Assembly: GCA_963770835.1 (NCBI GenBank)
Contig: CAVYRH010000026.1
Location: 78,811 to 142,810 of the forward strand
Reading direction: 5' to 3'
DNA from: an uncultured Pseudomonadota bacterium
GTDB lineage: Bacteria > Oederibacteriota > Muellerivitia > Muellerivitales > Muellerivitaceae
DNA length: 64,000 nucleotides
The notes under the pieces were generated by a model. The model was given only the letters and a program-made list of their open reading frames with translations. It had not been told where the DNA came from and made no database searches. How positions within the stretch are numbered: the first letter of the stretch is position 1; every line of letters starts with the position of its first letter. The translations under genes and the position numbers were made by a program. Below, in pieces: positions 4,756 to 58,058 of this stretch.

Positions 4756-5385
4756 TTAGTTACCGGTCGTAGTCGCCGCGCCGCCTGCCGGGGGAGTATC
4801 CCCACCGGTGGTGCCGCCGGGCGTTTTCCCGCCTCCGGTGGCGGAGGGAGGTTGCAGGAAAGCGTAAGCGCGGATGGCCCGGGCTTTCCAGCCCTTGCCG
4901 CCACGGTTCACCATAACGCTGTAAACGTGGATGTTCATGGGGCCTGCGGCGTTTCCATCGGGATTCTTCATGCCGGTCACGGTGGAGGTGCAATCCACCA
5001 AGGCAAGGTTGTTCATCACCCAGACGAAGCTGAAATCACTGAAAGCCTGAGTGGTCCCACTCATCGGGCCAGCCAAGTCGGCGGCGATGACCTTTTGGAC
5101 TCCCGCCATGCCCTGGCCTTCCGTTCCCATGGGGTTGATCAAGGTAGCGTCTGAAGTAAAGAAAGAGGCAATGGTCGTGGCATCGCCGGAAGCCCAGGCC
5201 GTGGCAAAGTCCGAAAAGGCCTGTTGGATGCCCGCTTCATCGCCGCCAGCCATGTGGACCTTGGCCTTCTTCGCCGGCGCGGAAGCGGGGGCGTCCCCAG
5301 CAGCGGGGGTTGAGGCTTGGTCCTGGGCTAAAAGCGGGGTGGAGAACAACAACAAGATTGCGGCAACAGCCAAAATTTTCTTCAT
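4756..5385 (-). CDS. Secreted hypothetical protein with SnoaL/NTF2-like (DUF4440-like) domain and Gly/Thr/Pro-rich tail
   Basis: Signal peptide MKKILAVAAILLLFSTPLLAQ; central domain with FSDFATAWASGDATTIASFFTSDATLINPMG... resembling NTF2-like folds; low-complexity C-terminus. Confidence 0.45.
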   Translation of the reverse strand: MKKILAVAAILLLFSTPLLAQDQASTPAAGDAPASAPAKKAKVHMAGGDEAGIQQAFSDFATAWASGDATTIASFFTSDATLINPMGTEGQGMAGVQKVIAADLAGPMSGTTQAFSDFSFVWVMNNLALVDCTSTVTGMKNPDGNAAGPMNIHVYSVMVNRGGKGWKARAIRAYAFLQPPSATGGGKTPGGTTGGDTPPAGGAATTTGN

Positions 5386-5545
5386 AAAATACGTCTCCTT
5401 CGTTCCCTAAGGATGAAAACGGGCACATTATCCCTGCCCTTTCCGGCATCGTCAACTTTTCTCAAGGGTGATCATAGGGGTATTGATCCTCCCGGCCCGC
5501 CGATATACTAACAACCCCAGGTCATGGATTAACTCGGAGGCTTTC

Positions 5546-26999: not shown

Positions 27000-28565
27000 T
27001 TGACCCATTCCTCCCAACAAAGCCGCTTTTGGGCCCTGGCCGTCCTGGGTTTGGCCGGCCTCTTGATCGTTTTGGAACGCTGTCACACCTACTCCGAGCC
27101 CCTCGAAAGGGACATCACCACCTACGCGGTCATTGGCGAGGAACTCCTCAAGGGCCGGTCCCTTTACTCCGACCTTTGGGACCACAAGCCCCCTGCCATC
27201 CACCTGACCTTCGCCCTTGCCGAGGCCGTTGCGGGGGAGGGGCCCCTTTCCATCTATCTCTTAAACGTATTGGCGGCTTTGGCTACCTTGGCGGGGTTAT
27301 ACCGGGCCGGAAAAAGCCTGGGCGGTTTGGCTGGGGGCCTTTGGACGGCGCTGATTTGGGCGGCCGTTTCCGGGGACCTTTACCTGCAGGCCAACCAACC
27401 CAACGAGGAAGTTTTTCTCAATGCTTTTCAAACCTGGGTATTCGTGTTGTGGCTTTCGGCTTCCGTGAAAACTTTCGAACCTCGCCGGTGGGTCCTTATC
27501 GGCATCTTTTCCGCCATCGCTTCCATTTACAAACCCTTCGCGGTTTTGGAAATCCTGTTTCTTGGCGCGGTTTACCTGGTTCTCAACCCCAAATCTTCCC
27601 CAAGAAAAACCGCTTTGCGCCAAGTGGGAACCGCCTTTGCCTGCGTCCTAGCCGCTTGGGTAGTTCTCTTCGGCTGGTTTTCCCTCCAAGGAAGATGGAA
27701 CGACTTCAAGAACGCAGTCTTTACCTACAACGTTTATTACAGCGGTTACCATGACGCCAGTTTCCTGGAGATAGTGCAAAACATCGGAGGCCAGGCGCTG
27801 AATTTCCAAACCCTTGCCTGGCTCTTCCTACTCTTCGCGCTGGGGTGCCTGGGGGCTTTGCTTGGAAAAAGTAAAAAAGAGGAGCGGGAGCCCCGGCTTT
27901 TTTGGGGCGCCTTTTTGGTGGCGGCCGAATTGGAAGTCCTTCTTCCCGGCTGGTTCTTCGCCCATTACGATCAGCTTCTGCTGCCGCCGCTCGTCTTGGG
28001 GGCGTCTTGGGGCATTACCTATTGGGGGGAGTTAATTAAAGATAAAAGATGGAAATGCCTGCCCGGCACCCTCTTGATGGCCTTCCTTATTTTCCATGAG
28101 GCGCCTTTCTACCGGCTCACACCCGAGGAATGGGCGAATAAAAAATATTCGGACGGTCCGCTGTTCATTCAATCCTACCAACTGGGCCGCGAATTGGACG
28201 GGATACTCCAGCCAGGCGAAACCTTCTATGAATGGGGAAATGAATCCGAACTTTATTTCGCCGCCCGCCGTTCCCCGCCCAGCGGGGTTTTTTACAGCTA
28301 CCCTCTCCTGAATAATCCCCTGGCTGGTGAGCTTTCCCAGCGGGTCGTGCGAGATTTGGAAAAGCAAAGGCCCGAGGTCATCGTCTTAGACACGGCTTTT
28401 TACTTCAACGGTAGTTTTATCCAGCACCACCCCATCCTTCAATGGGTCCGGGGGGTCCAGGACCGCTACAAGCCCTTCCCCCAAAACCCCTACCGGAAGC
28501 CTTTCCTCCTGCTGATGCTCAAGGGGGGCAACCTGGAAAAACGGCTGGGGATGAAACAGACCTGA
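27000..28565 (+). CDS. Polytopic membrane protein with C-terminal soluble domain; possibly a GT-C-like glycosyltransferase (uncertain)
   Basis: 521 aa, TTG start, about 9 TM segments in the first 330 aa, YSDLWDHKPP loop motif, hydrophilic C-terminal domain. Embedded in the GT-C array. Confidence 0.35.
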   Translation: MTHSSQQSRFWALAVLGLAGLLIVLERCHTYSEPLERDITTYAVIGEELLKGRSLYSDLWDHKPPAIHLTFALAEAVAGEGPLSIYLLNVLAALATLAGLYRAGKSLGGLAGGLWTALIWAAVSGDLYLQANQPNEEVFLNAFQTWVFVLWLSASVKTFEPRRWVLIGIFSAIASIYKPFAVLEILFLGAVYLVLNPKSSPRKTALRQVGTAFACVLAAWVVLFGWFSLQGRWNDFKNAVFTYNVYYSGYHDASFLEIVQNIGGQALNFQTLAWLFLLFALGCLGALLGKSKKEEREPRLFWGAFLVAAELEVLLPGWFFAHYDQLLLPPLVLGASWGITYWGELIKDKRWKCLPGTLLMAFLIFHEAPFYRLTPEEWANKKYSDGPLFIQSYQLGRELDGILQPGETFYEWGNESELYFAARRSPPSGVFYSYPLLNNPLAGELSQRVVRDLEKQRPEVIVLDTAFYFNGSFIQHHPILQWVRGVQDRYKPFPQNPYRKPFLLLMLKGGNLEKRLGMKQT

Positions 28566-28567
28566 GG

Positions 28568-30730
28568 CTATTTCCCGCCCGCCGGGGACCGGCCCATCGC
28601 ACCGAGGGCCCTCAAGTTTTCCGCGGCGGGGGTGAGGTTCACGGGACAGAGGAGGGCCGCCTCGAAAGCCTTCCGGGCGCCCGGGATATCCCCTTGAAAG
28701 GCCAGGAAAGCCCCCCATTCGTTATAAAAAAAGGCGGTGGGGTACCCTTGCTTCAGCCCTTCGCGCAGGGCCCGCAAGGCGGCGGGGTTATGCCAGGAAC
28801 GGTTCCGGTCGCCATAGGCGTTTTCCCAAACGTGGAACTTGAAGGCCCATTCCCAATAGAGGGATTCCAAGAAGGGGTCGCCCCGGAAAAGGGGCTTCAT
28901 CCCCTCCAATTGAGCGAAGACTTCCCGGCGGTCCCCGTCTTCCGGCACGTTGGCCTCGGTCCAAACCGCATCCCGCAGGGCCGCGTCGGCTCGCCTCCAA
29001 CTTTCCACGGGTTCCCTCCCGCCTTCCCCGGGGGGAAGGATTCCCAAAACCAGGTTTGAGCCCGGGGGTCCCGGATGGGCCGGGTCATACAGATCAACCC
29101 ATCGGCTCGCCACGAAGCGCCGTTCCAAAAAAGGCCGGTAATCGGCGTCCACCACGATCCCCATCCAATGCACCTGTTCCGGCGAAATCTTGGGATTGGC
29201 GGTGGCGTTGAAGACGTAGGTGGCCACCGAAAGATCCGGATTGGGTTCGTGGGGCCGCAGTTCAAAGAGGACGACTCCCGGTCCCTTTTCCCCGGCTTCC
29301 GCTTTCAAGTAAGGGAAGGCCTTTGCGGAGGGGGAGGCGGAAGAGGGGAAAGTCAAAAGAACATGGCGCAGGTCCAACAAAAGGACGATGGGAAGGGCCA
29401 GCCCCAAGGCCCACCAACGGCTCCGGGAAGGCAGGGAGAGCAACAGGCGGCCCGCCCCCATCACCGTCACCAGCAAAAGGACCGGAAGCAACTGCATGTT
29501 CCGGAAAAGGTCGAAATTTTTCGTCAGCATCCCCGGAGTCAAGAGTACCAAAAAAATAACGGCCAAAAGACGGGTCCAGGCCTGGTGCCGGAAGCGCCAG
29601 CATTCCAAGGCCCCTAAAAAAAAACAGGCGCCTTCCAAGGGGTTGAGAACGCCGCCCCAAACCGGCCCGTAGGAATTTTGCAGGTCGCAGCCCCAGAAAA
29701 GCGAGGTGAGGTTGGAAGCGGAATCCGTCCATCGGCGAAGGAGGCTGTCCTGTCCGCCGAAGGTCCATAGCCGGCCCAAATGGGCGCTGTTCCGGAAATG
29801 AAGGGAGGCCCATCCGAACAGGAAGAGGAAGACCAGGACCGGAACCCCATAGGCGATGAGGGGGCCGGCCCAGGGCTTTTTTCCCCGGCTCAATCGAACG
29901 GCCACGATGAAGCTCACCACCAGGGCCAGCACCGGCCAGGAAGTGGAAACCCAAAAACCCAATCCCACGGCCAGGCCCAAAAGGAAAGGCATCCTTCCGC
30001 CCCCTTGGGGTGGATTGGATTTTATCCAAAAGGCGAGGAGAGCCAGGACCAAGAATTCCCAAAAAACCAGTAAGGACATATAGCCGCAGAATTTGCCGGC
30101 ATAAAGGGGCCAAAAACTGAAGGCCATCAGAAGGACGAAGAGGAAGCCGAAGGAAGGGGAAAGGAGCCGGCGTACGAGGACCCAGGATAGCAAAAGGCTC
30201 CCCAAAGAAAAAAGCGCGGGGAAAAGCCAAAGGGAAGTGACGGACGGCGGGACCAGGTGGAAATAAGCCGCCATGATCCAGTTCAACAAGGCGGGGTATT
30301 GGGAATTGCTCAGAAAAAAAACCCAATGCCAATGGTTTAAGAGTTCCACCGAATAGTAAGCCACCCGGCTGTCGTCGAAGGTGGGCCAGTTGCCCGGCAT
30401 CCAGACCATCCCCAGGCGCACCGCGCAGCCCAAGGCCAGGATCAGGAACCAGAGGAATCCTGGAGGGCGATGGAAAATTTCCGGGAAGGGAAGAGACTTT
30501 TCTTTTTTGTCCGTTCCAGGCATGGAATGGAGGGCCAGGACGAAAGGCAAGAGCACCCCCATCAGGAAAATCCATAATCGAAGGGCGAGGCCCATGGGCA
30601 CCCAGGAAAGGACGGCGTTGACGCCTGTGAATACCAGAAAATAAACCCAGGCCTTGGCGGGATAGGATGGATTGAAGAAACCAGTCTTTGGGGTCACTGA
30701 TGGGCGCCTTTTTTTAATTCCCCGGGACAT
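28568..30730 (-). CDS. GT-C fold glycosyltransferase, PMT/TMTC-like with C-terminal TPR (paralog 2 of 6)
   Basis: 720 aa; GNWPTFDDSRVAYYSVELL motif; N-terminal 150 aa about 85% identical to paralog 3 (KTGFFNPSYPAKAWVYFLVFTGVNAVLSWVPMGLALRLW...). Confidence 0.6.
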   Translation of the reverse strand: MSRGIKKRRPSVTPKTGFFNPSYPAKAWVYFLVFTGVNAVLSWVPMGLALRLWIFLMGVLLPFVLALHSMPGTDKKEKSLPFPEIFHRPPGFLWFLILALGCAVRLGMVWMPGNWPTFDDSRVAYYSVELLNHWHWVFFLSNSQYPALLNWIMAAYFHLVPPSVTSLWLFPALFSLGSLLLSWVLVRRLLSPSFGFLFVLLMAFSFWPLYAGKFCGYMSLLVFWEFLVLALLAFWIKSNPPQGGGRMPFLLGLAVGLGFWVSTSWPVLALVVSFIVAVRLSRGKKPWAGPLIAYGVPVLVFLFLFGWASLHFRNSAHLGRLWTFGGQDSLLRRWTDSASNLTSLFWGCDLQNSYGPVWGGVLNPLEGACFFLGALECWRFRHQAWTRLLAVIFLVLLTPGMLTKNFDLFRNMQLLPVLLLVTVMGAGRLLLSLPSRSRWWALGLALPIVLLLDLRHVLLTFPSSASPSAKAFPYLKAEAGEKGPGVVLFELRPHEPNPDLSVATYVFNATANPKISPEQVHWMGIVVDADYRPFLERRFVASRWVDLYDPAHPGPPGSNLVLGILPPGEGGREPVESWRRADAALRDAVWTEANVPEDGDRREVFAQLEGMKPLFRGDPFLESLYWEWAFKFHVWENAYGDRNRSWHNPAALRALREGLKQGYPTAFFYNEWGAFLAFQGDIPGARKAFEAALLCPVNLTPAAENLRALGAMGRSPAGGK

Positions 30731-32874
30731 TCCGGGAAGGGAAATTTTTTTTCCATGGCCTCCAGGGCCTTCAAGTTGTCCGCGGTGGGAGTGAGGTTCA
30801 CGGGACAGCGGAGGGCCTTTTCAAAGGCTTCCCGGGCGCCCGGATAATCCCTTTCCAGGATTAAAAAGTTTCCGAGCTCGTTGTAGAAAATCGCCGCCGG
30901 ATATCCCAGCCTCAATTCATTCCGCACGGCTTGCAGGGCCGCCGGAAAATGGACGGCCGTGTCCCGGTCCCCGTAAGAGAGTTCCCACCCTTGAAAATTG
31001 AAGACCCATTCCCAATAGAGGGATTCCAATAAAGGGTCGCCCTTGAACAAGGGATAAACCCGCGACAATTCCTCGAAGACCCCCTTCCGGTCGCCATCCT
31101 CCGGCAGGTTGGCCGCCGCCCAAGTGATGTTCCGCAAGGCCCCGTCGGCCCGCCTCCAGTTTTCCAGCGCCGCCTGGTTTTCGGCCCCGACCGGGATCAC
31201 CCCCAAGGCCAGGTTGGCGTTTTGAAGGTCCGGGTTCACCCTGTCAAAAAGATCAAACCACTTCCCGCCGGCAAAGCGGCGCTCCAAATAGGGCTGAAAA
31301 TCCACGTCCACGATCACCGCCAACCACTTCACCTTTTCCCCGGGGATTTGGGGGTTGACCGTCGCGTTGAACGCATAGGTGGCCATGGCCAGGGTCAGGT
31401 CCGATTCATGGGGCCGCAACTCGAACAACAAAGCGCCTGGCCCTTCCTGGCGGGCTTCCTCCCTTAAAAGGGGGAAGGCCTGGGCGGAAGCGAAGGAAGA
31501 GGGACGGTTGGCGCCCGGGGCCTTTGGCTGGTAAGTCAGCAGGGTTTGGCCGAGGTCGAGGAAAAAGACGCAGGGGAGGGCCAGGCCCAGGGCCCAGACC
31601 CGAGACCGCGGGGAAATAGACAGGAGCGCCCGTCCAGCGCCCAAGGCCGTCACCAGCAAAAGAAGGGGCAGGACCTGGGTGTTGCGGAACAGGTCGAAGT
31701 TTTTGGTGGTCAAACCCGGCGCCAAGAGGAGAAGGAAGGCCGAAGCCAGCAGGACCGCCCAGGGTTTGCGCCGGAAGCGCCAGCATTCGAGAGCCCCGAG
31801 GAAAAAACAGGCGCCTTCCAAGGGGTTGAGGACGCCCCCGGCCACGGGCCCGTAGGCGTTTTGGAGGTCACAACCCCAGAAAAGCACGGTGAGGTTGGAG
31901 GCCGAATCCATCAGCTGGCGCGGGACGTCCATGGGCCTTCTAAAGGCCCAGAGCTGGCCGATATGCACCCCGTTGCGGAAGCGCAGGGACAGCCAGCCGA
32001 ACAACAGGGCGGAGACCAGGACTGGAACCAGGTAGACAACCAGGGACTCCCAAACCGCCTTTTTCCTTTGCCTCAGCAGGAGGGCCACCGTGGCGCTCAG
32101 CGCCAGGGCCGCCACCGGCCAGGAAATGGAAACCCAAAATCCCCCGGCCACGAAGAGGCCCAGGGCCAAAGGCACCACCCAAAGGCGGCGGGAGGGGCTG
32201 GAGGAGGCCCAAAAGGCCAGGGCCGCGAGGGTCAGGCATTCCCAGAAAACCAGGGAGGTCATGTACATGCAGAACCGCCCGGCGTAAAGCGGCCAAAAGT
32301 TGAAAGCCATGAGGAAAACCAGGAGGAAAGCGAAAGAGCGGGAAAAGAGGCGCCGGGCCGCAGCCCCCACGAGAAGAAGCGCCCCGATGGAATAAAGCGC
32401 CGGGTAAAGCCTCAGGGCGGTCAGGGATGGCGGGACGAGCTTGTAAAAGAAAGGCATGACCCAATTGAATAAAGGGGGATGCTGGGTGGGGCTGAAGAGG
32501 AAGACCCAACGCCACCGGTTCAAAAGTTCCACCGAGTAATAAGCGAAGCGGCCGTCGTCCCAGGTGGGCCAGTTGCCCGGAAGAAAGGCCAGCCCCAGGC
32601 GCACTGCCACCCCCAGAACCAGGATCCACCAGAGCCGGGAAGGAGCCTTGAGGAATTCCGCCCTGGGGAGGGGGACTTCCTTTTTACCGGCTTCTTCCAT
32701 GGAAAGGGCGGCCAGGACGAGGGGCAAAAGAACCCCCATCAGGAAAACCCATAATCGAAGGGCGAGGCCCATGGGCGCCCAGGAAAGGACGGCGTTGGCG
32801 CCTGTGAATAGCAGGAAATAAACCCAGGCTTTGGCGGGATAGGATCGGTCGAAGAAGCCGGTTTTGGAGATCAT
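30694..32874 (-). CDS. GT-C fold glycosyltransferase, PMT/TMTC-like with C-terminal TPR (paralog 3 of 6)
   Basis: 726 aa; GNWPTWDDGRFAYYSVELL; same architecture as paralog 2; overlaps paralog 2 start by 37 nt. Confidence 0.6.
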   Translation of the reverse strand: MISKTGFFDRSYPAKAWVYFLLFTGANAVLSWAPMGLALRLWVFLMGVLLPLVLAALSMEEAGKKEVPLPRAEFLKAPSRLWWILVLGVAVRLGLAFLPGNWPTWDDGRFAYYSVELLNRWRWVFLFSPTQHPPLFNWVMPFFYKLVPPSLTALRLYPALYSIGALLLVGAAARRLFSRSFAFLLVFLMAFNFWPLYAGRFCMYMTSLVFWECLTLAALAFWASSSPSRRLWVVPLALGLFVAGGFWVSISWPVAALALSATVALLLRQRKKAVWESLVVYLVPVLVSALLFGWLSLRFRNGVHIGQLWAFRRPMDVPRQLMDSASNLTVLFWGCDLQNAYGPVAGGVLNPLEGACFFLGALECWRFRRKPWAVLLASAFLLLLAPGLTTKNFDLFRNTQVLPLLLLVTALGAGRALLSISPRSRVWALGLALPCVFFLDLGQTLLTYQPKAPGANRPSSFASAQAFPLLREEARQEGPGALLFELRPHESDLTLAMATYAFNATVNPQIPGEKVKWLAVIVDVDFQPYLERRFAGGKWFDLFDRVNPDLQNANLALGVIPVGAENQAALENWRRADGALRNITWAAANLPEDGDRKGVFEELSRVYPLFKGDPLLESLYWEWVFNFQGWELSYGDRDTAVHFPAALQAVRNELRLGYPAAIFYNELGNFLILERDYPGAREAFEKALRCPVNLTPTADNLKALEAMEKKFPFPECPGELKKGAHQ

Positions 32875-33147
32875 CGGTCAGGGGCCCTAACCGGAGTATC
32901 CCGACTCGGACGGAAAACGGCAACAAAAATCATTTGAACCGACGTTTGGACGGGCTCCGGCCCGTGGAAATTCCGGTTCTTTTCCGAGGCAAAGTTTTCC
33001 AGGCCACGCCTCCAATGTTAGAATACACCGTCGTTCAGCTTGCGGGTCCCCGGGCTTTAACCCCTTGTTCCCCGCGTTCAAAATGTATCGGGCGAGGCCG
33101 CCATTTCCCCCACGACAAAGTCCAAGCTCTTTCCCGCAGGCCCCGCC

Positions 33148-34809
33148 TTGGCCGTGGGAGGACTGCTCCTTTTCCTCGCCCTGCAACTGTATTTCTTCAC
33201 CCCTTATTATGAACTGAACGACGACACCTTCAAAACCTTCTTCACCCAGGGCCTGGGGACGGAACTCGCGCCCAGCGAGTTCGCCGGCTACTCCAACCCC
33301 CTTTGGGGCCTGCTGATAAAGTCCCTTTTCGCCCTTTTCCCCCACGTGCCCTGCTACGGCATCGCCCTTGTTACCATCCAGGCCCTGTCCTTCGGGGCCC
33401 TTTTATGGGCTTTTGGCCTCAGCCCCCACCCCGGCTTCAAGGCCCTCCTCTTCGCGGTTACCTTCCTGGGGGCGGGGGTTCATTTTTTCGCCCAAATCCA
33501 ATTCACCGTAACCGCCCTGCTGGCCGTCCAATCCGCCCTTTTCCTCCTCCTCAGCCTTTGGCAAAACAAGCGTTTGGCCGGCTCGCCGGCGGCCCTGGGG
33601 CTTTCTGGATTCCTGCTTTTCGCGGGGTCCCTCATCCGGTTCGAGGCTTTCCTGCTGGCGATCCTCGCCTTCCTTCCCCTTTCGGCCCCCCTTTGGCCCG
33701 GAAAAAATAAAAATTTCCGTGAAACAGTTTCATCGCGGAAAGGTTATTTTTTGGCCCTGGGATTATTGGTCTTGGGCGCCGCCGCCTTCAGCCACTATTG
33801 GTACGCAAAAACCCCGGGCTGGAGCGACTTCAACCGGTTCGACCACGAGCGATTGGACCTCATGGATTACCGCATCGATCCCTACAACGCGGCCACCCAG
33901 CCCTATTTCGACCAGGCGGGATGGACCGAAAACGACTATCAGATGTTCAAGGACTGGTATTTCATGGACAAGGATATCTACGATCCGGACAACATGCGCC
34001 GCCTGGCCGGGCATTTCCCGCGGGTGGGAGCGGAGGGCAAACCCTTCGCCTATCATTCCCTCCCGGAAACCCTCGCGTCCTTTTGGGGCCAAACCTTTTT
34101 GATGTACGTCTTCGCCTTCTTCCTCTGGGTCCCGTTGAAGCCCCTCCGCTTATTGGCCCTTCAATTCCTGTGGATCCTCGCCCTTTTCGCCTTTCTCGTT
34201 TATTTTTGGGGCGCGCGGGACAGGGTGACCCTTCCGCTGCTTTTTATGCTGGTGAACGCGGCCATTTACTTTTCCAATCCCGCCTTGGGGGAAAATCCGG
34301 GCTCCGGGGGGAGGTTCCGGAAGCTCCTCCTCAAGGCCGCCGCTATCTTCCTGGCGGTTTTGTTCCTGCTGGGGATGAATCTTTACTACTACTCCTACCT
34401 GGGGAACCGGGACTTGCGGATCAGGGAAAAGGCCCTGGAAACCTGCCTCGCGGAATGGAAGCCCCGGGAGGACCATCTTTACGTGGTCTGGGACTCCAGC
34501 TTCCCCTACGAAGACCTCAACGTCTTCGACAACTTCGACGCCTTCCGGAAGCTCCATATCTTCCCGCTGGCCGTCTACCAGCGCAGCCCCAACGCCCAAA
34601 AAATGCTGGACCGCTTCGGGATCAAGAACCTCCTGCGGGACCTGGTGGACAATCCAAACGTTTCGCTGATCTGCTGGCCCCAGGAAGGCGCCCTTTACCA
34701 CCAGTACATGCTGGAAAAATACCGGATGGAAATCACCGCTGAAAAAACCTATGACTGCCCTTTCTTCAAGGTGTACCGGATCCATTCAAAACCTTCCCCG
34801 AAGGGCTGA
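33148..34809 (+). CDS. Polytopic hypothetical membrane protein (TTG start) within the GT-C array
   Basis: 553 aa, about 12 hydrophobic segments, aromatic-rich loops (DYRIDPYNAATQPYFDQAGWTENDYQMFKDWYF); no recognisable catalytic motif. Confidence 0.4.
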   Translation: MAVGGLLLFLALQLYFFTPYYELNDDTFKTFFTQGLGTELAPSEFAGYSNPLWGLLIKSLFALFPHVPCYGIALVTIQALSFGALLWAFGLSPHPGFKALLFAVTFLGAGVHFFAQIQFTVTALLAVQSALFLLLSLWQNKRLAGSPAALGLSGFLLFAGSLIRFEAFLLAILAFLPLSAPLWPGKNKNFRETVSSRKGYFLALGLLVLGAAAFSHYWYAKTPGWSDFNRFDHERLDLMDYRIDPYNAATQPYFDQAGWTENDYQMFKDWYFMDKDIYDPDNMRRLAGHFPRVGAEGKPFAYHSLPETLASFWGQTFLMYVFAFFLWVPLKPLRLLALQFLWILALFAFLVYFWGARDRVTLPLLFMLVNAAIYFSNPALGENPGSGGRFRKLLLKAAAIFLAVLFLLGMNLYYYSYLGNRDLRIREKALETCLAEWKPREDHLYVVWDSSFPYEDLNVFDNFDAFRKLHIFPLAVYQRSPNAQKMLDRFGIKNLLRDLVDNPNVSLICWPQEGALYHQYMLEKYRMEITAEKTYDCPFFKVYRIHSKPSPKG

Positions 34810-37024
34810 GGTGCCCCTGAAGCCATTGAAGGAGGGCGGCGGGGGGCGGATTTTGCGGTTCCAACCTGCGGCATTGCTGGAAGTCCCAAAGAGCCTGCCG
34901 GTAATTTTTTTGGTCCATTTCCAATTGGGCCAGGTAGCGGTAAAACTTCGGCGACTCATAACCCGTTTGGAGGGCGGAATGAAACAAGAGGAGGGCCTGC
35001 CGCTCATCGTGTTTAAGGTCCCTTTCGTCCTCCCCCAGCCTTTCCAAAAAATAACCCTTCCGCCACCGCAGGGCCGGGTCCAAACCACAAACCCGGATTT
35101 CCTCCCTCAGGCATTGCATGGCTTCCTCTTGGGGGATCTTGTCCATTAAATCCGCTAATTTTTCCCAATAACAAGACTCCAGGAAAGTGTCACCTTGAAA
35201 AGAGCCCCGGCATGACTTCAAGCTTTCCACGGCCGGCCCGTAGTCCGGGTTCGCGATGTGGTAAGGCATCAAGCCGAAAAGGCCCTGGATTTGGCGGTGG
35301 GCTTCCAGCCATTTTTGGAGCACCGGAGCGGCTTGGCTGTCCAAAGGTAAGAGGAACAAAACCAGGTTGCCTTCCAATGCCGGCAATCCATCGAAGAGCG
35401 GGTAGTTTTGGGAACGGGGGAAGCGGCGGGCGAAGTAGGACCGGAAGGAATCATCGGCCAGGACCGCGGCCCAATGGGCTTTTTGCGGGTCGAGAGCCGG
35501 GTTTCTCGCGGCGTTAAAGGGATAGGTTGAAATCAGGAGGGATTGGTCAAAAATATTGGGCACGAACTCGGTGAGGATCAATCCGGGACCTTCCCTGGCC
35601 TGGACCAGGTCCAGGATCTGGAAAGCGCGGTACCTTTCGGGTGATTTCGAATCGTTGGAATGGGCGCCCGGAACGGCCCACTGATGGTAGGGAAAACCCA
35701 AGTGGCAAAGGTCCAGGCCGGCGGAAAAGCTGGCGGAAAGGACCAGTGCCATGATTCGGCGGCGCTTGGGAAACGCCAGGAGCCATCTCCTCCATCCTAC
35801 GGCGGCCACCACCACCGCCAGGGGCAGGAGGGGTAGGATGCGCATGACCTCGACGTTGGCGGAAAGAACGCCGGGCAGTAGCCCCAACGCCAGGAGCCCT
35901 ACCGTCCCGAAAAAGAAAAATTTCCGGCGATTCCCGAAAATCTCCACGATCCCCAATAAAAAGGCCGCGCCGAGGATGGGATTGAAAAAGCCACCCCAAA
36001 GTGGCCCAAAATTAAAATAGGATTTGTCGACCGTTCCCCACAGCAAGGCCGTGACATAAGAGAAAGAGACCGACAGTTGATGGAGGGAAAGGGGCTGGGA
36101 GAAAATGAGGTAATGCTGTACGTGACCCGCCAGGACATTCCGGAAAATCCCAAGGGAAATCGGCAGGGCCAGGAGAAGAACCGGCAGGGCAAAAGCCAAA
36201 ACCGGCCCCCATCGTCCTGGCTTTTCCCGCAAGGTCTTCCGCAAAGCCCCAACACTTAACACGAAGATAACCGGAATGGACAGTATCCAAACATATAAAC
36301 CTGAACCGAGCCCCAAGCCCAATCCCAAGGCGGTAAAAATCCGGTTTTTTCCGGGGCGGCTTTGAAGGAAAAGCGCGAAGAGGCCCAGACAAAGGCATTC
36401 CCAAGCCGTGAACAATACCATGATTTGACAGAAGGTGCCCAGGAAGAGGGGCCAAAAGCTGAAAGCCAGGATCAAGGCGCAAAAAAAAGAAAGGGATTTG
36501 GAAAAATACCTCCGACAGGCCCAGTAGCCCGCCAACAAGACCAGGATGGACAATAAGCCGGGAAAAAACCAAAGGGAAAAAAGCGAGGGGGGAAACAGCC
36601 TGTAAAACAACGCCAACATCCAAAAAAAGAGGGGCGGATCGGATTCAGAGGAATAAAAGAGCTGCCAGTGCCAATGTTGCGCTTGGCCAATGGAATAATA
36701 GCTGCTGAGGGCGTCGTCCCACATGGGCCAAACCAAGAGGGGGCGCGAGAAACACAACCTCAGCGCGGCCGCGCCCCCCCAAAACACGACCCAAAACCAA
36801 GCCGGGAAGGAAGCGGGGAAATCCCGCCCCTTCCATGGTCCGGCTGTTTTGAAAGCTAAAGCCAAAGGAAGCAGGATTCCCAAGACGCCCACACAGCATT
36901 TCGTGGGAAGACCCGATGGGAGGTAAGCCAGGAAAAAATTGACTGCCAGGAAAATCCCCAAATAGGCACGGGGGTCGTAGGGACGTCGAAGCAGCTGTTG
37001 AATCCTATTTTCGGGGGAGTTCAC
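34766..37024 (-). CDS. GT-C fold glycosyltransferase, PMT/TMTC-like with C-terminal TPR (paralog 4 of 6)
   Basis: 752 aa; VWPMWDDALSSYYSIGQ motif; C-terminal TPR-like region (NYRQALWDFQQCRRLEPQNP). Confidence 0.6.
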   Translation of the reverse strand: MNSPENRIQQLLRRPYDPRAYLGIFLAVNFFLAYLPSGLPTKCCVGVLGILLPLALAFKTAGPWKGRDFPASFPAWFWVVFWGGAAALRLCFSRPLLVWPMWDDALSSYYSIGQAQHWHWQLFYSSESDPPLFFWMLALFYRLFPPSLFSLWFFPGLLSILVLLAGYWACRRYFSKSLSFFCALILAFSFWPLFLGTFCQIMVLFTAWECLCLGLFALFLQSRPGKNRIFTALGLGLGLGSGLYVWILSIPVIFVLSVGALRKTLREKPGRWGPVLAFALPVLLLALPISLGIFRNVLAGHVQHYLIFSQPLSLHQLSVSFSYVTALLWGTVDKSYFNFGPLWGGFFNPILGAAFLLGIVEIFGNRRKFFFFGTVGLLALGLLPGVLSANVEVMRILPLLPLAVVVAAVGWRRWLLAFPKRRRIMALVLSASFSAGLDLCHLGFPYHQWAVPGAHSNDSKSPERYRAFQILDLVQAREGPGLILTEFVPNIFDQSLLISTYPFNAARNPALDPQKAHWAAVLADDSFRSYFARRFPRSQNYPLFDGLPALEGNLVLFLLPLDSQAAPVLQKWLEAHRQIQGLFGLMPYHIANPDYGPAVESLKSCRGSFQGDTFLESCYWEKLADLMDKIPQEEAMQCLREEIRVCGLDPALRWRKGYFLERLGEDERDLKHDERQALLLFHSALQTGYESPKFYRYLAQLEMDQKNYRQALWDFQQCRRLEPQNPPPAALLQWLQGHLSPSGKVLNGSGTP

Positions 37025-41704: not shown

Positions 41705-43072
41705 TTAGGGTCTTCGCGAAAGATATTCCCGAACTTTTTCCGCGGCGCGGTGGCCCGAAAGGCAGGCGCCTTCCAGGGTGGCGGGAAGGCCCGTGTTGGT
41801 CCAGTCCCCGGCCAGGAAGACATTGGGGTAGGGCGTTTCACAAGGCGGGCGGAGCCTGTCCGTTTCCTTGTTCCAAACGAAAGTGGCGGCCATTTCCCGC
41901 GTGGCCTTGGAATAAAGCACGGAAGCCCCAGCGGCCGCGGGACACTTCGCCCGCAATTCCACCAAGGCCAAGTCCACCAGTTCAGGGTCCTTCAAGCGGC
42001 CCAGGTCTTCCGCTGCGCTGGCCGTAAAGCTCAAGTATTGGCCTTGCCCCTTCCAAGACCAATTGGCGTTGCGGTTGAAAACCCACTCGAACCTGGCGCC
42101 CGAAAGCCCGACGAGATGGCCTTCCATGACCGGCTTGGAAAGGATGACGTGGACGGAAACAATGGGGGATTTTCCCATTTTGGAGAAATGGGAGGTTGTT
42201 TCCCAAGTCCCGGCGGGCCAAAGGGCGGAGAGGGAAGTGGGCGGCACGGCGAAAACGAGGGCATCGCCGGGATAAACGGCACCAGAACGGGTTTTAATTT
42301 CAAATACTCCCTCTTTAACAGTGAATTCCTGGACCCCCTCATGAAAAAGAACCCGCCCCCCTTTTGCTTCCAGGCACTTCCGGGCTTTTTCCGAAACCAG
42401 GTCGCCCAGGGGGAACCGAGCGATCCCTAAGGCGCTGTCCCGGCGGTTCCCGAAGAAGACCCGGTGAAGCACCTCGCCCAGGCCCAGGAGGGGCGCGACG
42501 GCGGGGGGAACGTTCATGACACTATCGCAAAGGGGCACCCAAAAGCGCTCGCGGGAGTGCGGGCCCTGGCCGGTGGTATCGAGGAACTGCGCCACGGTTT
42601 CCGCGCCCGACGGAATCCGAAAAGGTTTTTTCGAGAAAGCCGAAAGGGCCTTCGACATGGAAATTTTTTCCTTCCATGGAAAAGCGTTGGAAGTGAGGAG
42701 ACCCCAAACCAGATGGAAAGGAGCGGGCAGGGGGGCGCATTTCAGCGAGACTTTTTTCCCGCCAGAAGTGAGCCAGGAAAGGGCCAGGGGATCAATCCAA
42801 TGGAAGGCGCCGTTCATCCCGATTCGCTCCAGCATCCGGAGGGTTTCGGCGTAGCAACCCATGAAAAGATGGGGGCCGTTGTCCATGGGCGCGGGGAAGG
42901 TTTCGGAGGCCGGGATGGAATAGGCCCGGCCGCCCAGGGAGCCGCGGGACTCCAGGAGGTCCACGGAAATACCCTCTTCGGCCAGGGCCGTGGCGGCGGC
43001 GATCCCGGCATATCCCCCTCCCACGACGATCACTTTTCCCATCAACGAACTATCCCTTTCCAAAGCCAGCAA
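41705..43072 (-). CDS. hpnE: Hydroxysqualene dehydroxylase (amine-oxidase/phytoene-desaturase family)
   Basis: GKVIVVGGGYAGIAAATALAEEG FAD fold, C-terminal FLAGDWTNTGLPATLEGACLSG; third gene of a canonical hpnC-D-E triad. Confidence 0.75.
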   Translation of the reverse strand: MLALERDSSLMGKVIVVGGGYAGIAAATALAEEGISVDLLESRGSLGGRAYSIPASETFPAPMDNGPHLFMGCYAETLRMLERIGMNGAFHWIDPLALSWLTSGGKKVSLKCAPLPAPFHLVWGLLTSNAFPWKEKISMSKALSAFSKKPFRIPSGAETVAQFLDTTGQGPHSRERFWVPLCDSVMNVPPAVAPLLGLGEVLHRVFFGNRRDSALGIARFPLGDLVSEKARKCLEAKGGRVLFHEGVQEFTVKEGVFEIKTRSGAVYPGDALVFAVPPTSLSALWPAGTWETTSHFSKMGKSPIVSVHVILSKPVMEGHLVGLSGARFEWVFNRNANWSWKGQGQYLSFTASAAEDLGRLKDPELVDLALVELRAKCPAAAGASVLYSKATREMAATFVWNKETDRLRPPCETPYPNVFLAGDWTNTGLPATLEGACLSGHRAAEKVREYLSRRP

Positions 43073-43881
43073 CGGCCAACCACTCCCAAAACCGAAAGCA
43101 GCTTGTCGGCCTTGGAGAGGACGGTGCGCCCCTTCAGAATGCGGTAGGGATTGGCCCTCAATTTTTGGTAAAGCTTCACATAAACGGCAGCGATGGCCTC
43201 GGCGGTCACCAGTTGGGAGCGTTGGAAAAGGCTCAAGGACCCCCGCGCTTTTTCAAGGTAAGACCAGGCGCGGTCCAGTTGGAATTCGACGAAGGGTTTC
43301 CAGTGGGAATCGGTCTCCCCGAGTTGGGCTGGATTTAGGTGGAACCGCTTGAAGTCCTCCTGCGGGAAATATTGGCGATTGAGGGCCATGTCCTCCCGGT
43401 AATCCCGGGTGATATTGACCAACTGGAGGAAAACGCCGAGGTTTTCGGCGTAATCGCGGTGGGCCTGGTCCTTGAAGCCGAAGATTTCCATGCAGGCCAA
43501 GCCGGGGCCCCCCGCCACCTTCAGGGCGTATTGGTGGAGCCCAAGGAATTTTTTGAACCGGACGGGCCTCAAATCCTGTTCCACGCCCTGGATAATCCGT
43601 TCCAAGGGTTCGCGGGAAAGGCCGAAGGCGGGGATGAGGCCTTTCAACCTAAGAAAGAGAGGATGGGTTGCCCGGTCTGCAAAAGCGCTATTCAGGTTCC
43701 GTTTGAAGCGGGACAGCTTGCTCTTTTTTTCGGCGGGCGAACCTGGTCCATCGGCGATCTCATCGGCTTCCCAGCAGAAACGGTACAACACTTCCATGGC
43801 CCGTCTTTGGGAACGGGGTAGGAGAAGGAGGGCATAGTAAAAGCTGGTTTTGTTTTCGAGCGAGCCTTTTTGGGGGTTCAC
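43042..43881 (-). CDS. hpnD: Presqualene diphosphate synthase (squalene/phytoene synthase family)
   Basis: SFYYALLLLP, YRFCWEADEIAD (first Asp-rich motif), NITRDYREDMALNRQYFPQED (second motif). Confidence 0.75.
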   Translation of the reverse strand: MNPQKGSLENKTSFYYALLLLPRSQRRAMEVLYRFCWEADEIADGPGSPAEKKSKLSRFKRNLNSAFADRATHPLFLRLKGLIPAFGLSREPLERIIQGVEQDLRPVRFKKFLGLHQYALKVAGGPGLACMEIFGFKDQAHRDYAENLGVFLQLVNITRDYREDMALNRQYFPQEDFKRFHLNPAQLGETDSHWKPFVEFQLDRAWSYLEKARGSLSLFQRSQLVTAEAIAAVYVKLYQKLRANPYRILKGRTVLSKADKLLSVLGVVGRCWLWKGIVR

Positions 43882-43902
43882 AGGACCTCTTGCTAGTTAT
43901 TT

Positions 43903-44772
43903 TTAAGGATGAACCGCGCCAAATAGGGACCGGAGAGCCAGCGAAAGCTTATCGAATGCGTTCCAGGAGGGCCGGGTTTGGAGCACATTGTAGTCCATGT
44001 CCCTGATTTTATTGAGGATTCCCTGGCCGCCCAAGTAGGTCGCCTTCAATTCCAGTTTCAAGCGGCCGGACACCGATTCCAAGAGGGGGTGGCCTTTTTT
44101 AAAGTAACCTTCGGTGTAATCCACGGCGCTTTTCACCAGGACCCGGACCGCCGCGGAAGCCTTCAAGCCCAGCAGATCTTTTTCACCCACACCCGCCTTT
44201 TTCAATTCCAGCCGGGGGTAATAAATCCGGTTCCGTTTCAGATCCATCGCCGTGTCCTGCCAAAAGTTGATGAGCTGGAGGCCGCTGCAGATGAAATCCG
44301 AGTACCGGTGAAGTTTTTCCTCCCGGATGCCGGAGATATAAAGCACCATGCGGCCCACGGGATTGGCGCTATGGCGGCAATAAAAAAGAACCTCCTTCCA
44401 GGAAGCGTAACGCTTGACGGTCAGGTCCATCCGGTAGGCTTTCAACAAATCCAAGGGAAGGGAAAGGGGGATGCGGAAGGTCTTCAACGTGTTCGCGAAG
44501 GCTTGGAGTTCCAGGGGAGCCTTCTTCCTTTTCAGGGCGTCCTTGAGGCTCTTTTCCCAGCGGTTGATTTCCCCCAGGCGCCGGCCCTCGTATTCTTCCT
44601 CATCCGCGAAGTCATCGGCGGTGCGGGCAAAGGCATAGAGGGCCGCCACATGGGGGCGGGATTGCTTGGGCAAGAGCAGGGAGGCCACGGGGAAGTTCTC
44701 ATAGTGGCCAAAAGTCCGCTTCTGGCATAAGGCGTAAGCTTGCTCAAGGCCGGAGGGGATCGATGAGTCCAT
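43903..44772 (-). CDS. hpnC: Hydroxysqualene synthase (squalene/phytoene synthase family)
   Basis: ENFPVASLLLP, YAFARTADDFADE, LINFWQDTAMDLKRNRIYYP motifs; first gene of the triad. Confidence 0.75.
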   Translation of the reverse strand: MDSSIPSGLEQAYALCQKRTFGHYENFPVASLLLPKQSRPHVAALYAFARTADDFADEEEYEGRRLGEINRWEKSLKDALKRKKAPLELQAFANTLKTFRIPLSLPLDLLKAYRMDLTVKRYASWKEVLFYCRHSANPVGRMVLYISGIREEKLHRYSDFICSGLQLINFWQDTAMDLKRNRIYYPRLELKKAGVGEKDLLGLKASAAVRVLVKSAVDYTEGYFKKGHPLLESVSGRLKLELKATYLGGQGILNKIRDMDYNVLQTRPSWNAFDKLSLALRSLFGAVHP

Positions 44773-56142: not shown

Positions 56143-57426
56143 GTGAAAAAATTCGATGCCCTCGTCGTGGGCGGCGGGCCGGGCGGCTATACGGCGGCCC
56201 TGATGCTTTCCCAGCAGGGAAAGACCGTCGCGCTTTTTGAGAAAAGAAAAATCGGCGGCTCTTGCCTGCATGTGGGCTGCATTCCCACCAAGCTTTTGCA
56301 ATCCGCCGCCCACCGCTATTACACGCTTTCCAAGGAAGGCGCGGCCTGGGGCATCGAGGCCGACAACATCCGGTTCAATTTCCAGACCTTGGTGGACCGC
56401 ACCCAAAAGACCATTTCGATCCTCGAACGGGGCATCGTGGCCCAGCTTTCCGCCGCCAAGGTGGAAGTGGTGCAGGGCGAGGCCCAAGTCAAGGGCAAGG
56501 ACTTGGTGCAATGCAACGGCGGGGAATACCAGGGCAGATCCCTCATCCTGGCCATGGGCTCGAGGCCGCGGCGCCTTCCGGCCTTCCCGGTGGGGGGCAA
56601 CGTCGTCACCAGCGACGAACTCCTGGGCCAACCCCAATTTCCCAAGTCCCTTTTGATCGTGGGCGCGGGCGTCATCGGCCTGGAATTCGCCTGCCTTTAC
56701 GCGCAGCTGGGGGTGAAAGTGCGGATAGGCGACGTCCTGCCCAAGCTCCTTCCCAATATGGATGAGGAAATGGGGCAGGTGATCCTGAACTCGGTGCGCA
56801 AACTGGGCGTGGAAGTGGAGCTGGGCCTCCTGGAAGTGGCGCACAAGAATGAGGAGTTGATCCTGGTTTCCGCCGGACGCATGGCCAATTCCGACAACTC
56901 CGGCGTGGGTAACCTGGGCTTGAGGGCGCCGGGGGGCAAGATCGAAACCAACGGCTTCCTGGAAACATCGGTGCCGGGCGTTTTCGCCATCGGCGACCTG
57001 ACGGGGAAATATCCCTACGCCCACACGGCTTATGAGCACGCCCGAATCGTGGCGGCGCGTTTGGCGGGCGGGAAAGAGGAAATGGACGACGCCAAGGTGC
57101 CCCACGTGGTCTTTACCTCGCCGGAGATCGCCTCAGTGGGTTATACCGAAACCGAAGCCAAGATGCGGTTTAAGAACGCGAAAGCCTTGAAGCACAACTT
57201 CGCGGCCAACAGCAAGGCCCGCATCCTTGGGGAAATCGGCGGATGGTCCAAGACGGTTTATGACGGCGACACGGGCGTCATTTTAGGCGTCCACGTGACC
57301 GGCCCGGAGGCCACCGACCTGATCGGTGAGGCATGCGTTCTCGTGAGCCAAAAGATCACCCTTGATGCCCTGGACAAAGTGGTCCATCCCCACCCTACCT
57401 TGAATGAGATATTCGGTACTCATTGA
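56143..57426 (+). CDS. lpdA: Pyridine nucleotide-disulfide oxidoreductase, dihydrolipoyl dehydrogenase-like
   Basis: FAD fold DALVVGGGPGGYTAA, redox-active disulfide GGSCLHVGCIPTK, NAD fold LLIVGAGVIGLEFA, C-terminal dimerisation domain with HPHPTLNE; 427 aa (short for a canonical Lpd). Confidence 0.65.
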   Translation: MKKFDALVVGGGPGGYTAALMLSQQGKTVALFEKRKIGGSCLHVGCIPTKLLQSAAHRYYTLSKEGAAWGIEADNIRFNFQTLVDRTQKTISILERGIVAQLSAAKVEVVQGEAQVKGKDLVQCNGGEYQGRSLILAMGSRPRRLPAFPVGGNVVTSDELLGQPQFPKSLLIVGAGVIGLEFACLYAQLGVKVRIGDVLPKLLPNMDEEMGQVILNSVRKLGVEVELGLLEVAHKNEELILVSAGRMANSDNSGVGNLGLRAPGGKIETNGFLETSVPGVFAIGDLTGKYPYAHTAYEHARIVAARLAGGKEEMDDAKVPHVVFTSPEIASVGYTETEAKMRFKNAKALKHNFAANSKARILGEIGGWSKTVYDGDTGVILGVHVTGPEATDLIGEACVLVSQKITLDALDKVVHPHPTLNEIFGTH

Positions 57427-57639
57427 AGGTGGGGATGGAGGGGGCATGGGGGGGTTACCCCCATGGTTTTGGAAGGGTACACAGGGGAGCTTCCCTGTGA
57501 GCGCGAAGCGCCCATCCTCATCCAACTTTAAATGAGATATTCGGAACACATTAAGGATGTGAGTGAACGGGGAGTGGGGCGCAGCCCCACTGATTCGAGA
57601 CGGGGTATCATTAGGGGGACTTTCCCCTATGAGCGAAGC
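57401..57639 (+). repeat. Two tandem ~115-bp units, each starting with a copy of the last 30 nt of the lpd-like gene and containing two G/C-stem hairpins, ending ...tgagcg(cg)aagc
   Basis: Unit 1 57401-57509 (hairpins catggggggg-tta-cccccatg and cacagggg-agc-ttccctgtg). Unit 2 57530-57639 (gtggggc-gc-agccccac and taggggga-ctt-tcccctat). Unit-1 module matches addA 19481-19511 nearly exactly. Confidence 0.65.
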
Positions 57640-57647
57640 TGGAGGCT

Positions 57648-58058
57648 CTAGGTCCGGTTTTTCTGGACCGAATCCAACAAATCCTTTTGCCGGGGGGTAA
57701 GGGAGGACCAGTGCCTTTGCAGATATCCGGCGTTCTCCACGATTTGATGGAGGTAGAACTGGATGCCGGCTTGTTCATTGTTGATACGTTCCTGGAAGAC
57801 CTGTATTTCATCCGAAGAGAGCTGCCCCGCGGGCATGGCCGCCAAATTTTGCTGAAGGCGGGATAGGTCGACCTGAAGGAAATCCAAATCCGATTCGGCT
57901 TTTTGAAGGTGAGCCGCACGCGAAGGAATGTCCCCTTGAAGCCCGCCCTTTTTCACGTGATAGGCTGCTCCCGCGCTTCCAACGAGGAGTCCGGCACCAA
58001 TCAAAGCTAAAATGAATTTATTGGGTAGGTTCATTAAATGACTATTTGTAAATTCCAT
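57648..58058 (-). CDS. Hypothetical membrane-anchored protein
   Basis: 136 aa with N-terminal TM helix FILALIGAGLLVGSAGAAY and coiled-coil-like remainder. Confidence 0.4.
   Translation of the reverse strand: MEFTNSHLMNLPNKFILALIGAGLLVGSAGAAYHVKKGGLQGDIPSRAAHLQKAESDLDFLQVDLSRLQQNLAAMPAGQLSSDEIQVFQERINNEQAGIQFYLHQIVENAGYLQRHWSSLTPRQKDLLDSVQKNRT

Follow-up and report, generated by a model that had tools for sequence, protein, structure and literature searches.

Background

The subject of this report is a small repeated element behind a gene of the dihydrolipoyl dehydrogenase family (the lpd-like gene) in the DNA of an uncultured bacterium, contig CAVYRH010000026.1, positions 78,811 to 142,810. 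The whole of this analysed stretch, 64,000 nucleotides, is called the window. The spacer between the gene and a convergent open reading frame (ORF) is 221 nt long and repetitive, and our reading of its sequence, to which we give a rough probability of 0.45, is that it would be the result of two successive insertions (units A and B) of a small, non-coding and non-autonomous element that travels together with a replacement gene end. In the nomenclature used here X.Y is the duplicated 3' end of the host gene, X' is an inverted copy of X, and the core is the constant part of the element; the integrated order is host 3' end (X.Y), X', core and a second X.Y. Through the pairing of X' with X, the stretch X.Y.X' forms a hairpin with the gene end inside it, and because the left X.Y is joined to the gene, Lpd stays intact.

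The literature found on small bacterial repeats consists of general reviews (e.g. PMC3184786). Repetitive extragenic palindromes (REP), with the related BIME and REPIN sequences, are known from Enterobacteria, Pseudomonas and Stenotrophomonas, are mobilised by RAYT transposases, and are thought to act on the 3' ends of mRNA and to move as single-stranded hairpins (PMC3184786, in part general knowledge). Like them, the element has short G+C-rich extragenic hairpins after a stop codon and between convergent genes, is modular and is sometimes found in tandem; hairpins 1 to 3 of its core are short imperfect palindromes (z = -5.4) and covary. It has, however, no GTAG head, the sequence before hairpin 2 being GGGTA(C/T), and no inverted doublet, hairpins 1 and 2 being unrelated in sequence and constant in order and orientation. 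There is no RAYT (Y1 transposase) gene in the window either, and the two full copies there compare with hundreds of REPs per genome. To our knowledge REPs have not been reported as flanked by a duplicated gene end and an inverted copy of it.

Integrative elements that target the 3' ends of tRNA genes and of icd, such as e14 and phage 21, duplicate the 3' end of the target directly, and the left copy keeps the gene intact, as it does here for lpd, tRNA-Val and tRNA-Ser. In those elements the two copies differ synonymously or compensatorily since they come from different lineages, and the displaced tRNA halves decay. They are kilobases long and carry their own tyrosine integrase, whereas the insert here is ~75-130 nt, has no gene and no adjoining recombinase, contains an inverted copy of the target (X'), and is accompanied by a duplication whose length depends on the site. 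The attC sites of integrons and the attP(+) hairpin of CTX-phi share with our element an imperfect outer stem that closes a variable, branched part, as well as tandem arrays. Two inverted copies in CTX-phi fold so as to imitate the chromosomal target, and by analogy X.Y.X' may mimic its target too. The RYYYAAC/GTTRRRY core sites of attC are nevertheless absent; all junctions were inspected, and what stands there is GGATG...CATCC, CCCGTCC...GGACGGG, or the 3' end of a tRNA in inverted and in direct form. The outer stem is, unlike in attC and CTX-phi, a locus-specific copy of the host gene, and there is no integron integrase gene or dif site.

Repeats tolerated in frame within proteins are known from the Rickettsia palindromic elements (PMC3184786), and the module at 19481-19514 in addA, as well as other inserts in addA and addB, is likewise carried in frame and absent from orthologues; organism and sequence are different, and the module here is also part of an intergenic element with a gene-end duplication. 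With miniature inverted-repeat transposable elements (MITEs), Correia elements and SPRITE the element has in common that it is small, non-autonomous, foldable, located at gene ends and variable in presence between strains. The terminal inverted repeats of MITEs are however constant within a family and their target duplication is short and of fixed length, while X and X' differ from locus to locus, copy host sequence, and go with a duplication of ~18 to 70 nt. Judged from its sequence, the element would resemble a hairpin repeat of the REP or MITE type and an integrative element at the same time, and it lacks the traits that define each kind. No described bacterial repeat flanked by a direct and an inverted copy of a host 3' end was found, although with our incomplete coverage of the literature this is weak evidence of novelty.

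Structure of the two units

The gene end and the two units are composed as follows.

56143-57426, + strand: lpd-like gene (dihydrolipoyl dehydrogenase family), ORF of 427 aa, with the insertion site at its 3' end
57383-57394, + strand: X arm (HPHP codons), pairing with X' of unit A; inverted repeat I3, 12/12 complementary
57385-57426, + strand: tail 1 (X.Y), the working last 13 codons and stop, HPHPTLNEIFGTH and stop
57419-57439, + strand: X' of unit A, inverted gene-end copy, of which 57428-57439 is a perfect 12-nt arm
57440-57512, + strand: core of unit A (covariance model R1, 71.1 bits, E = 3.7e-15)
57445-57465, + strand: hairpin 1 of unit A
57466-57479, + strand: spacer of unit A
57480-57499, + strand: hairpin 2 of unit A
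57501-57511, + strand: mini-hairpin of unit A, GCGCGAAGCGC
57513-57554, + strand: tail 2, displaced gene-end copy reading HPHPTLNEIFGTH and stop, in the position that tail 1 has in the metagenome contigs L003 and L162
57555-57567, + strand: X' of unit B, GGATGTGAGTGAA, decayed
57567-57639, + strand: core of unit B (R1, 55.1 bits, E = 3.7e-11)
57573-57591, + strand: hairpin 1 of unit B
57609-57631, + strand: hairpin 2 of unit B
57633-57639, + strand: GCGAAGC of unit B, by reading of the sequence

A sequence-only reading of the window had described tandem units after the lpd-like gene. They are present, as the direct repeat D1 (57384-57451 and 57512-57579), but the period is 128 nt and not the ~115 bp that had been given. 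The gene end is indeed duplicated, over 42 nt (14 codons including the stop) rather than 30 nt: the last 14 lpd codons at 57385-57426 recur at 57513-57554. What had been taken as the copy at the start of the first unit is the gene's own end, and the latter stretch is the true duplicate. The two hairpins of G-runs and C-runs seen in each unit are there, with a third mini-hairpin in addition.

All 8 differences between tail 1 and tail 2 are synonymous, including the change from TGA to TAA, and both tails therefore read HPHPTLNEIFGTH. The stop of the ORF is the TGA at 57424-57426. Readthrough of it into tail 2 was considered and ruled out, as the frame after TGA is closed by a TAA at 57529-57531 and is not the one that tail 2 is in.

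The core of ~73 nt contains a G-run/C-run hairpin, an ACAGGGG/CCCTGT hairpin and a mini-hairpin GCGAAGC, which is a well-known and very stable DNA mini-hairpin (PMC13037366). In the element family as a whole the constant part is ~73-85 nt long, starts with GGGG, and has a spacer before hairpin 2 that ends with GGGTA. The three hairpins of the unit A core fold with -21.7 kcal/mol (z = -5.4). Next to the stop codon the stretch 57428-57439 (GGTGGGGATGGA) is the exact reverse complement of the HPHP codons at 57383-57394, and the complementarity crosses the stop codon, with 57419-57434 lengthening the stem (inverted repeats I1 and I3); the resulting X/X' hairpin at 57380-57442, folded as DNA, has -17 kcal/mol and z = -5.2. 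In unit B the pairing of X' with tail 2 is lost, the fold of 57508-57570 having z = -0.4 and the X' test not being significant, and this X' differs at 2 positions from GGATGTGGATGAA of L003 and L162. No right-hand tail copy follows unit B.

Distribution of the element

Orthologues of Lpd are 72-92% identical to the window protein, and in species-representative genomes the closest relatives are metagenome-assembled genomes (MAGs) labelled candidate division FCPU426, with 72-88% identity. An identical lpd-like protein is encoded on two further metagenome contigs, L001 and L002, in DNA that is 99.9% identical to the window. The repeat region is the same in these three independent assemblies, the single-nucleotide polymorphisms of L001 and L002 lying elsewhere, and it is therefore no assembly artefact.

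The site behind lpd is filled in 5 of 15 lineages and empty and clean in the 10 others, among them the closest relative, L160 (91% aa identity). The layout X.Y, X', core, X.Y follows lpd in L003, L005, L024 and L162-L164. Filled and empty sites are interleaved on the Lpd tree, giving a patchy distribution, and L024 is a distant filled lineage with an lpd DNA identity of ~70%. X' follows the synonymous HPHP variants of its own genome, being GGTGGGGATGGA in the window, GGATGTGGATGAA in L003 and L162 and GGATGGGGGTGAA in L005, and its matches to HPHP are 12-14 of 12-14. At one empty site (L166, 11240-11296) the orthologue P0012 ends with ...NEIFGGPLKPF and stop instead of ...NEIFG.H and stop, by what appears to be a frameshift of one base in the last codons that adds 4 residues.

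Searches of related FCPU426 metagenome contigs with two models of the core, a profile and a covariance model, gave further copies. A scan of metagenomes with a looser pattern gave at least 120 loci, and ~10 among the matches listed are true family members, numbers that speak of sites and not of abundance. In L005 and L117 the element is found at tRNA-Val(cac), where X is the part from the T-arm to CCA and Y is the terminator of the tRNA; L087 has a copy at tRNA-Ser(gga), terminators in L013 and L107 each carry an array of three units, and L018 and L098 contain further copies. The supposition that the repeat would recur elsewhere is thus borne out in other genomes, at lpd, tRNA-Val, tRNA-Ser and terminators, while the 64-kb window has no other full copy.

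Statistical support for the right-hand copy was obtained at 11 of 13 sites and for X' at 10 of 13, and the orientation of the element is always that of the gene whose end is duplicated. In the terminator cases the left junction lies directly after the T-run. The duplicated segment measures ~18-22 nt at terminators, 36-42 nt at lpd and ~70 nt at tRNA-Val with its terminator, and X' varies from 6 to 29 nt across sites.

At tRNA-Val in L005 the terminator to the left of the element has a different stem from the displaced one to the right, and the latter is the orthologue of the terminator after tRNA-Val in L003. The two terminators of L117 differ by stem changes that leave both of them paired, and the 3' end of its tRNA, the terminator and X' fold as one long hairpin (z = -6.45). 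The displaced tRNA halves bear changes in the T-loop, as expected of relics.

In the displaced tRNA-Val halves of L005 (4899-4923) and L117 we also noticed the same extra T in the T-loop (GGTTCGATGTCC and GGTTCAATGTCC), although other T-loop and acceptor bases are lineage-specific and different between the two. This common T may be due to shared ancestry or be a signature of the joining reaction. In L003, after tRNA-Val (5335-5411) and its terminator, there is at 5456-5500 an inverted copy of the tRNA-Val 3' end (GGGGCATTGCTGGATTTGGACCAGG) and then what appears to be the 3' arm of hairpin 1; the core and a right-hand tRNA half are lacking, and part of the element has probably been deleted.

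Origin of the duplicated gene ends

Insertion by a staggered cut, or slippage, gives two identical copies, of which the one bound to the gene is constrained to synonymous change and the other drifts. Under a null model of one gene-bound copy and one neutrally drifting copy ~34% of the differences are expected to be synonymous. Compared tail with tail, the five filled lpd sites have 27 synonymous and 4 non-synonymous differences (P = 1.9e-9, a pooled value that overstates the evidence as the five sites are not independent events). The window alone gives P about 2e-4 in the same test, and the direction is equal in every genome. Simple target duplication with neutral decay is therefore rejected. 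The insertion with target duplication, or replication slippage, that had been suggested from the sequence alone is not supported as it was worded, and the different terminator stems in L005 and the different affinities of the two units also speak against it. Another source of variable copies, a diversity-generating retroelement with template and variable repeats (TR/VR), was rejected on three grounds: 8/8 of the window differences are synonymous, 3/8 are C/T and thus not limited to adenine, and there is no reverse transcriptase.

The nearest match to unit A with tail 1 is the L005 unit, at 83% across the unit as a whole, while unit B (X' and core) is 83% identical to the L162 unit and tail 2 is 90% identical to the working tail (tail 1) of L003. 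The body of lpd is closest to L160 right up to the last codons. A foreign recombination tract within lpd upstream of the tail was looked for and not found, L160 remaining the closest to the end, and any foreign segment therefore begins at X. From the affinity of tail 2 and unit B to L003 and L162, tail 2 apparently once was the functional end of lpd, with the old element B behind it. On sequence affinities, unit B and tail 2 appear to be an older insertion, common to the close relatives L162 and L003, and unit A and tail 1 appear to have arrived later and to the left, along with the gene tail of a more distant lineage resembling L005. Taken together, the divergence of the tails, the terminator stems of L005 and the affinities of the units are more in keeping with a unit that arrives with a gene end of its own.

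The strongest competitor, which we still regard as unlikely, is that everything arose on the spot, in line with the suggestion made from the sequence alone. A hairpin-rich element would have landed behind the gene, and slippage, template switching or a staggered-cut insertion would have duplicated the 3' end in place and made X', with unequal crossing-over between the direct repeats giving the arrays and no movement between lineages. Two template switches at a stalled fork would be expected to leave X, X' and X in just this direct-inverted-direct order. X' also runs beyond the boundary of the duplication, as templated copying would, and in L117 it lengthens the terminator hairpin outwards into one long stem. 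Near identity of the units within the L107 and L013 arrays, and tails that are 93-94% identical in L003 and in L005, would fit with such an origin as well. Against it stand the excess of synonymous differences between the tails, overall and in the window alone, the greater likeness of the window's tail 2, compared with tail 1, to the tails of its closest relatives, the grouping of unit A with L005 and of unit B with L162 and L003, and the different stems of the left and right terminators of tRNA-Val in L005. The same junctions are moreover found in L024, where lpd has only ~70% DNA identity.

Hairpin structure and possible function

In an unguided alignment of hairpins 1 and 2, 87% of the cells are paired and 10 of the 15 pairs have changed on both sides, a covariation that none of 500 shuffles reached (0/500); in an alignment fitted to the model, which leans towards structure, 95.8% are paired. 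Fourteen cells are G-U pairs, which would be A-C mismatches on the other strand, a hint that folding takes place in the gene-sense strand, be it RNA or single-stranded DNA. At gathering threshold the only Rfam family in the window is tRNA, with none for the element. Known RNA families came up below threshold only, FsrA with 20 bits against 80 and Clostridiales-2 with 16-24 bits against 58.6, which is at the level of chance, and they were dismissed. The one site between convergent genes that was flagged as terminator-like is 57449-57462 followed by ATGGTTTTGG; it is weak and no more than shuffles give. A T-run after hairpin 1 also occurs in L013 and L117, and is missing from unit B and L003.

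These observations bear on a second alternative, which we consider rather improbable, namely that the structure is a conserved cis-acting 3' part of lpd and tRNA transcripts, inherited vertically, often lost and not mobile. A stem enclosing the stop codon, together with terminator-like hairpins, would then end transcription, protect the 3' end of the RNA or modulate the termination of translation. In its favour, compensatory changes hold the X/X' pairing in four lineages and the displaced tail no longer pairs; there is covariation in hairpins 1 and 2, every copy points the same way as the gene upstream of it, and the 14 G-U cells would be mismatches on the opposite strand. Hairpin 1 of unit A is also followed by GTTTTGG and was flagged as terminator-like. 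It is difficult to reconcile with the absence of the element from 10 of the 15 lpd lineages, including the closest relative, and with the same core behind unrelated genes, in tandem arrays and, as one module, in frame within addA. Nor would a cis-acting structure account for the presence of a second gene end or for the coding sense that it has kept, and at tRNA-Val the element sits downstream of a terminator that is already complete.

That the two gene-end copies are the attL and attR of a large integrative element (prophage or genomic island) later deleted almost entirely is very improbable, even if duplicated tRNA 3' halves or protein-gene 3' ends with an intact left copy are the classical footprint of an integrase, as is generally known, because independent deletions would not leave the same ~75-nt core with the same boundaries at at least 8 loci in different genomes, there is no integrase nearby, and no family member was seen among 29 pattern matches in viral contigs. 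An origin from phages was rejected on the same scan, in which the 29 viral contigs fit the loose pattern and 0 fit the family profile.

Proposed mechanism

In the reading that we prefer, insertion of an element with its own gene end, the gene end with X' and the core would travel as one unit from one related lineage to another. Its entry would be by recombination where X begins on the 5' side, in a sequence conserved for its function (the HPHP codons in lpd, the T-arm in tRNA genes), the left copy being imported and the right copy being the resident gene's old end, now displaced. Islands at tRNA genes, and e14 and phage 21 at icd, bring a replacement 3' end by this logic. The intermediate could be single-stranded and folded so that X.Y.X' mimics the target. 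X' itself might have arisen by snap-back copying that extended an existing hairpin outwards, an origin suggested by its reach of 2-4 nt beyond the direct repeat and by the terminator stem of L117 that is prolonged into the tRNA. The insert of ~86-130 nt encodes nothing, and an enzyme acting in trans or ordinary recombination would therefore be needed; a benefit for the host could lie in termination or in protection of RNA 3' ends. We also considered a model where the mobile part is X'-core-X alone, the remaining tail being copied anew from the resident template, but it predicts identical Y on both sides and was ruled out.

Several observations speak against this reading, besides the non-independence of the lpd sites and the 93-94% identity of the two tails in L003 and L005, which a recent local duplication would also explain. 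The right-hand copy is missing at two copies, unit B of the window and L098. The density is low, as the covariance model finds only units A and B as full copies in the 64-kb window, plus the partial match in addA. Nowhere does the window encode a recombinase, transposase or reverse transcriptase, and none adjoins any copy of the element in the neighbour gene tables. No free or circular form was seen, nor any event in progress. The variation in length, ~18 to 70 nt for the duplicated segment and 6 to 29 nt for X', is unlike any single known site-specific recombinase. Finally, the upstream reach of X' exceeds that of the direct duplication by 2-4 nt, and X' finds a better pairing partner in the chromosome than it would in a hypothetical excised circle.

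A wider idea, tentative and in our opinion doubtful, is that these are gene-less integrative mini-elements of a new class. Each would carry a spare, lineage-derived 3' end of its target together with a complementary arm, so that a single strand folds as a mimic of the target; an enzyme of the host, or another one acting in trans, would recombine it into the ends of tRNA genes, protein genes and terminators, leaving the old end as a relic, and single modules would also land in the loops of hairpins in coding regions. If this is true, a repeat of ~100 nt in bacteria of an uncultured phylum would act as a miniature genomic island, one that sits at gene ends, leaves the gene intact by supplying it with a new end, builds up arrays and lies at a break in gene order. 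It would join two fields that are treated separately, the hairpin repeats of REP and MITE type and the att-site duplications of integrase type, and offer a concrete system for finding an enzyme that moves hairpins. For annotation, duplicated gene tails that can still be translated and tRNA halves can mislead gene callers and island finders, and the hairpin-rich units are likely break points in assemblies.

Genomic surroundings

The neighbourhood of lpd is ordinary metabolism, with NAD synthase, lipoate-protein ligase and lpd, and the lpd-like protein itself matches the Pfam families Pyr_redox_2 (3.7e-52) and Pyr_redox_dim (8.5e-29). No promoter was found within the spacer at the 3' end of lpd. 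On the other side of the spacer lies one more feature:

57648-58058, - strand: convergent ORF of 136 aa without family match, its stop 8 nt from unit B, at a break of synteny against all relatives

In the relatives that were compared (L003, L005 and L160-L172) lpd is followed by a + strand MKK... gene and then a Nitr_red_assoc gene, whereas in the window the junction at 57640-57650 leads to this ORF and then to an SBP_bac_1 gene. The break in gene order coincides exactly with the end of unit B, and the element may mark the breakpoint of a rearrangement there.

Inserts in addA and addB

Two features of addA are of interest in relation to the core:

19454-19624, + strand: whole addA insert, 57 codons in frame, with several hairpin modules
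19481-19514, + strand: addA module, spacer and hairpin 2, 34 nt in frame, nested in the loop of another hairpin repeat

The sequence-only reading had noted a near identity between the first unit and addA. The similarity is real, with 25/27 matches between 57474-57500 and 19488-19514 (E = 6e-5 within the window), and when one gap of 2 nt is allowed 57464-57500 and 19480-19514 agree at 33/35 aligned bases, counted on the sequence; it is limited to one module. The covariance model of the family finds hairpin 2 only (19483-19513, 20 bits, E = 0.018), and the 3' part GAGCGCGAAGC that had been quoted is not common to addA. That one family occurs both as a REP-like array and as an in-frame insertion holds insofar as the repeat family is found at other loci and in other genomes and one of its modules in addA, while the likeness to REPs is an analogy only.

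The addA insert is missing entirely from the orthologues P0116, P0117 and P0121. Partial variants occur in two others, P0120 having the outer hairpin without the module and P0118 another part; the modules can therefore move separately and are tolerated in proteins.

A second family of hairpin repeats is present in frame in both helicase-nuclease genes, at 14502-14590 in addB and at 19524-19599 and 20849-20934 in addA. It is translated as ..PHP.PLPQGAR..SPSP.RGEGRDEGD in one orientation and as ..GEMGRVRGKQESHPHPDLLPSREKGK in the other. The order of its modules is M1a-M1b-M2 in the first addA copy and M2-M1a-M1b in the addB copy and the second addA copy when these are read on the other strand, and this circular permutation hints at circular or tandem intermediates.

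Two further gene groups of the window are unrelated to the repeat element. On the - strand at 41705-44772 two adjacent genes of the squalene/phytoene synthase family and a flavin amine oxidase gene may, by our reading, be a squalene synthesis set like HpnCDE. The region 27000-37024 contains three large paralogous genes resembling PMT_2-type glycosyltransferases.

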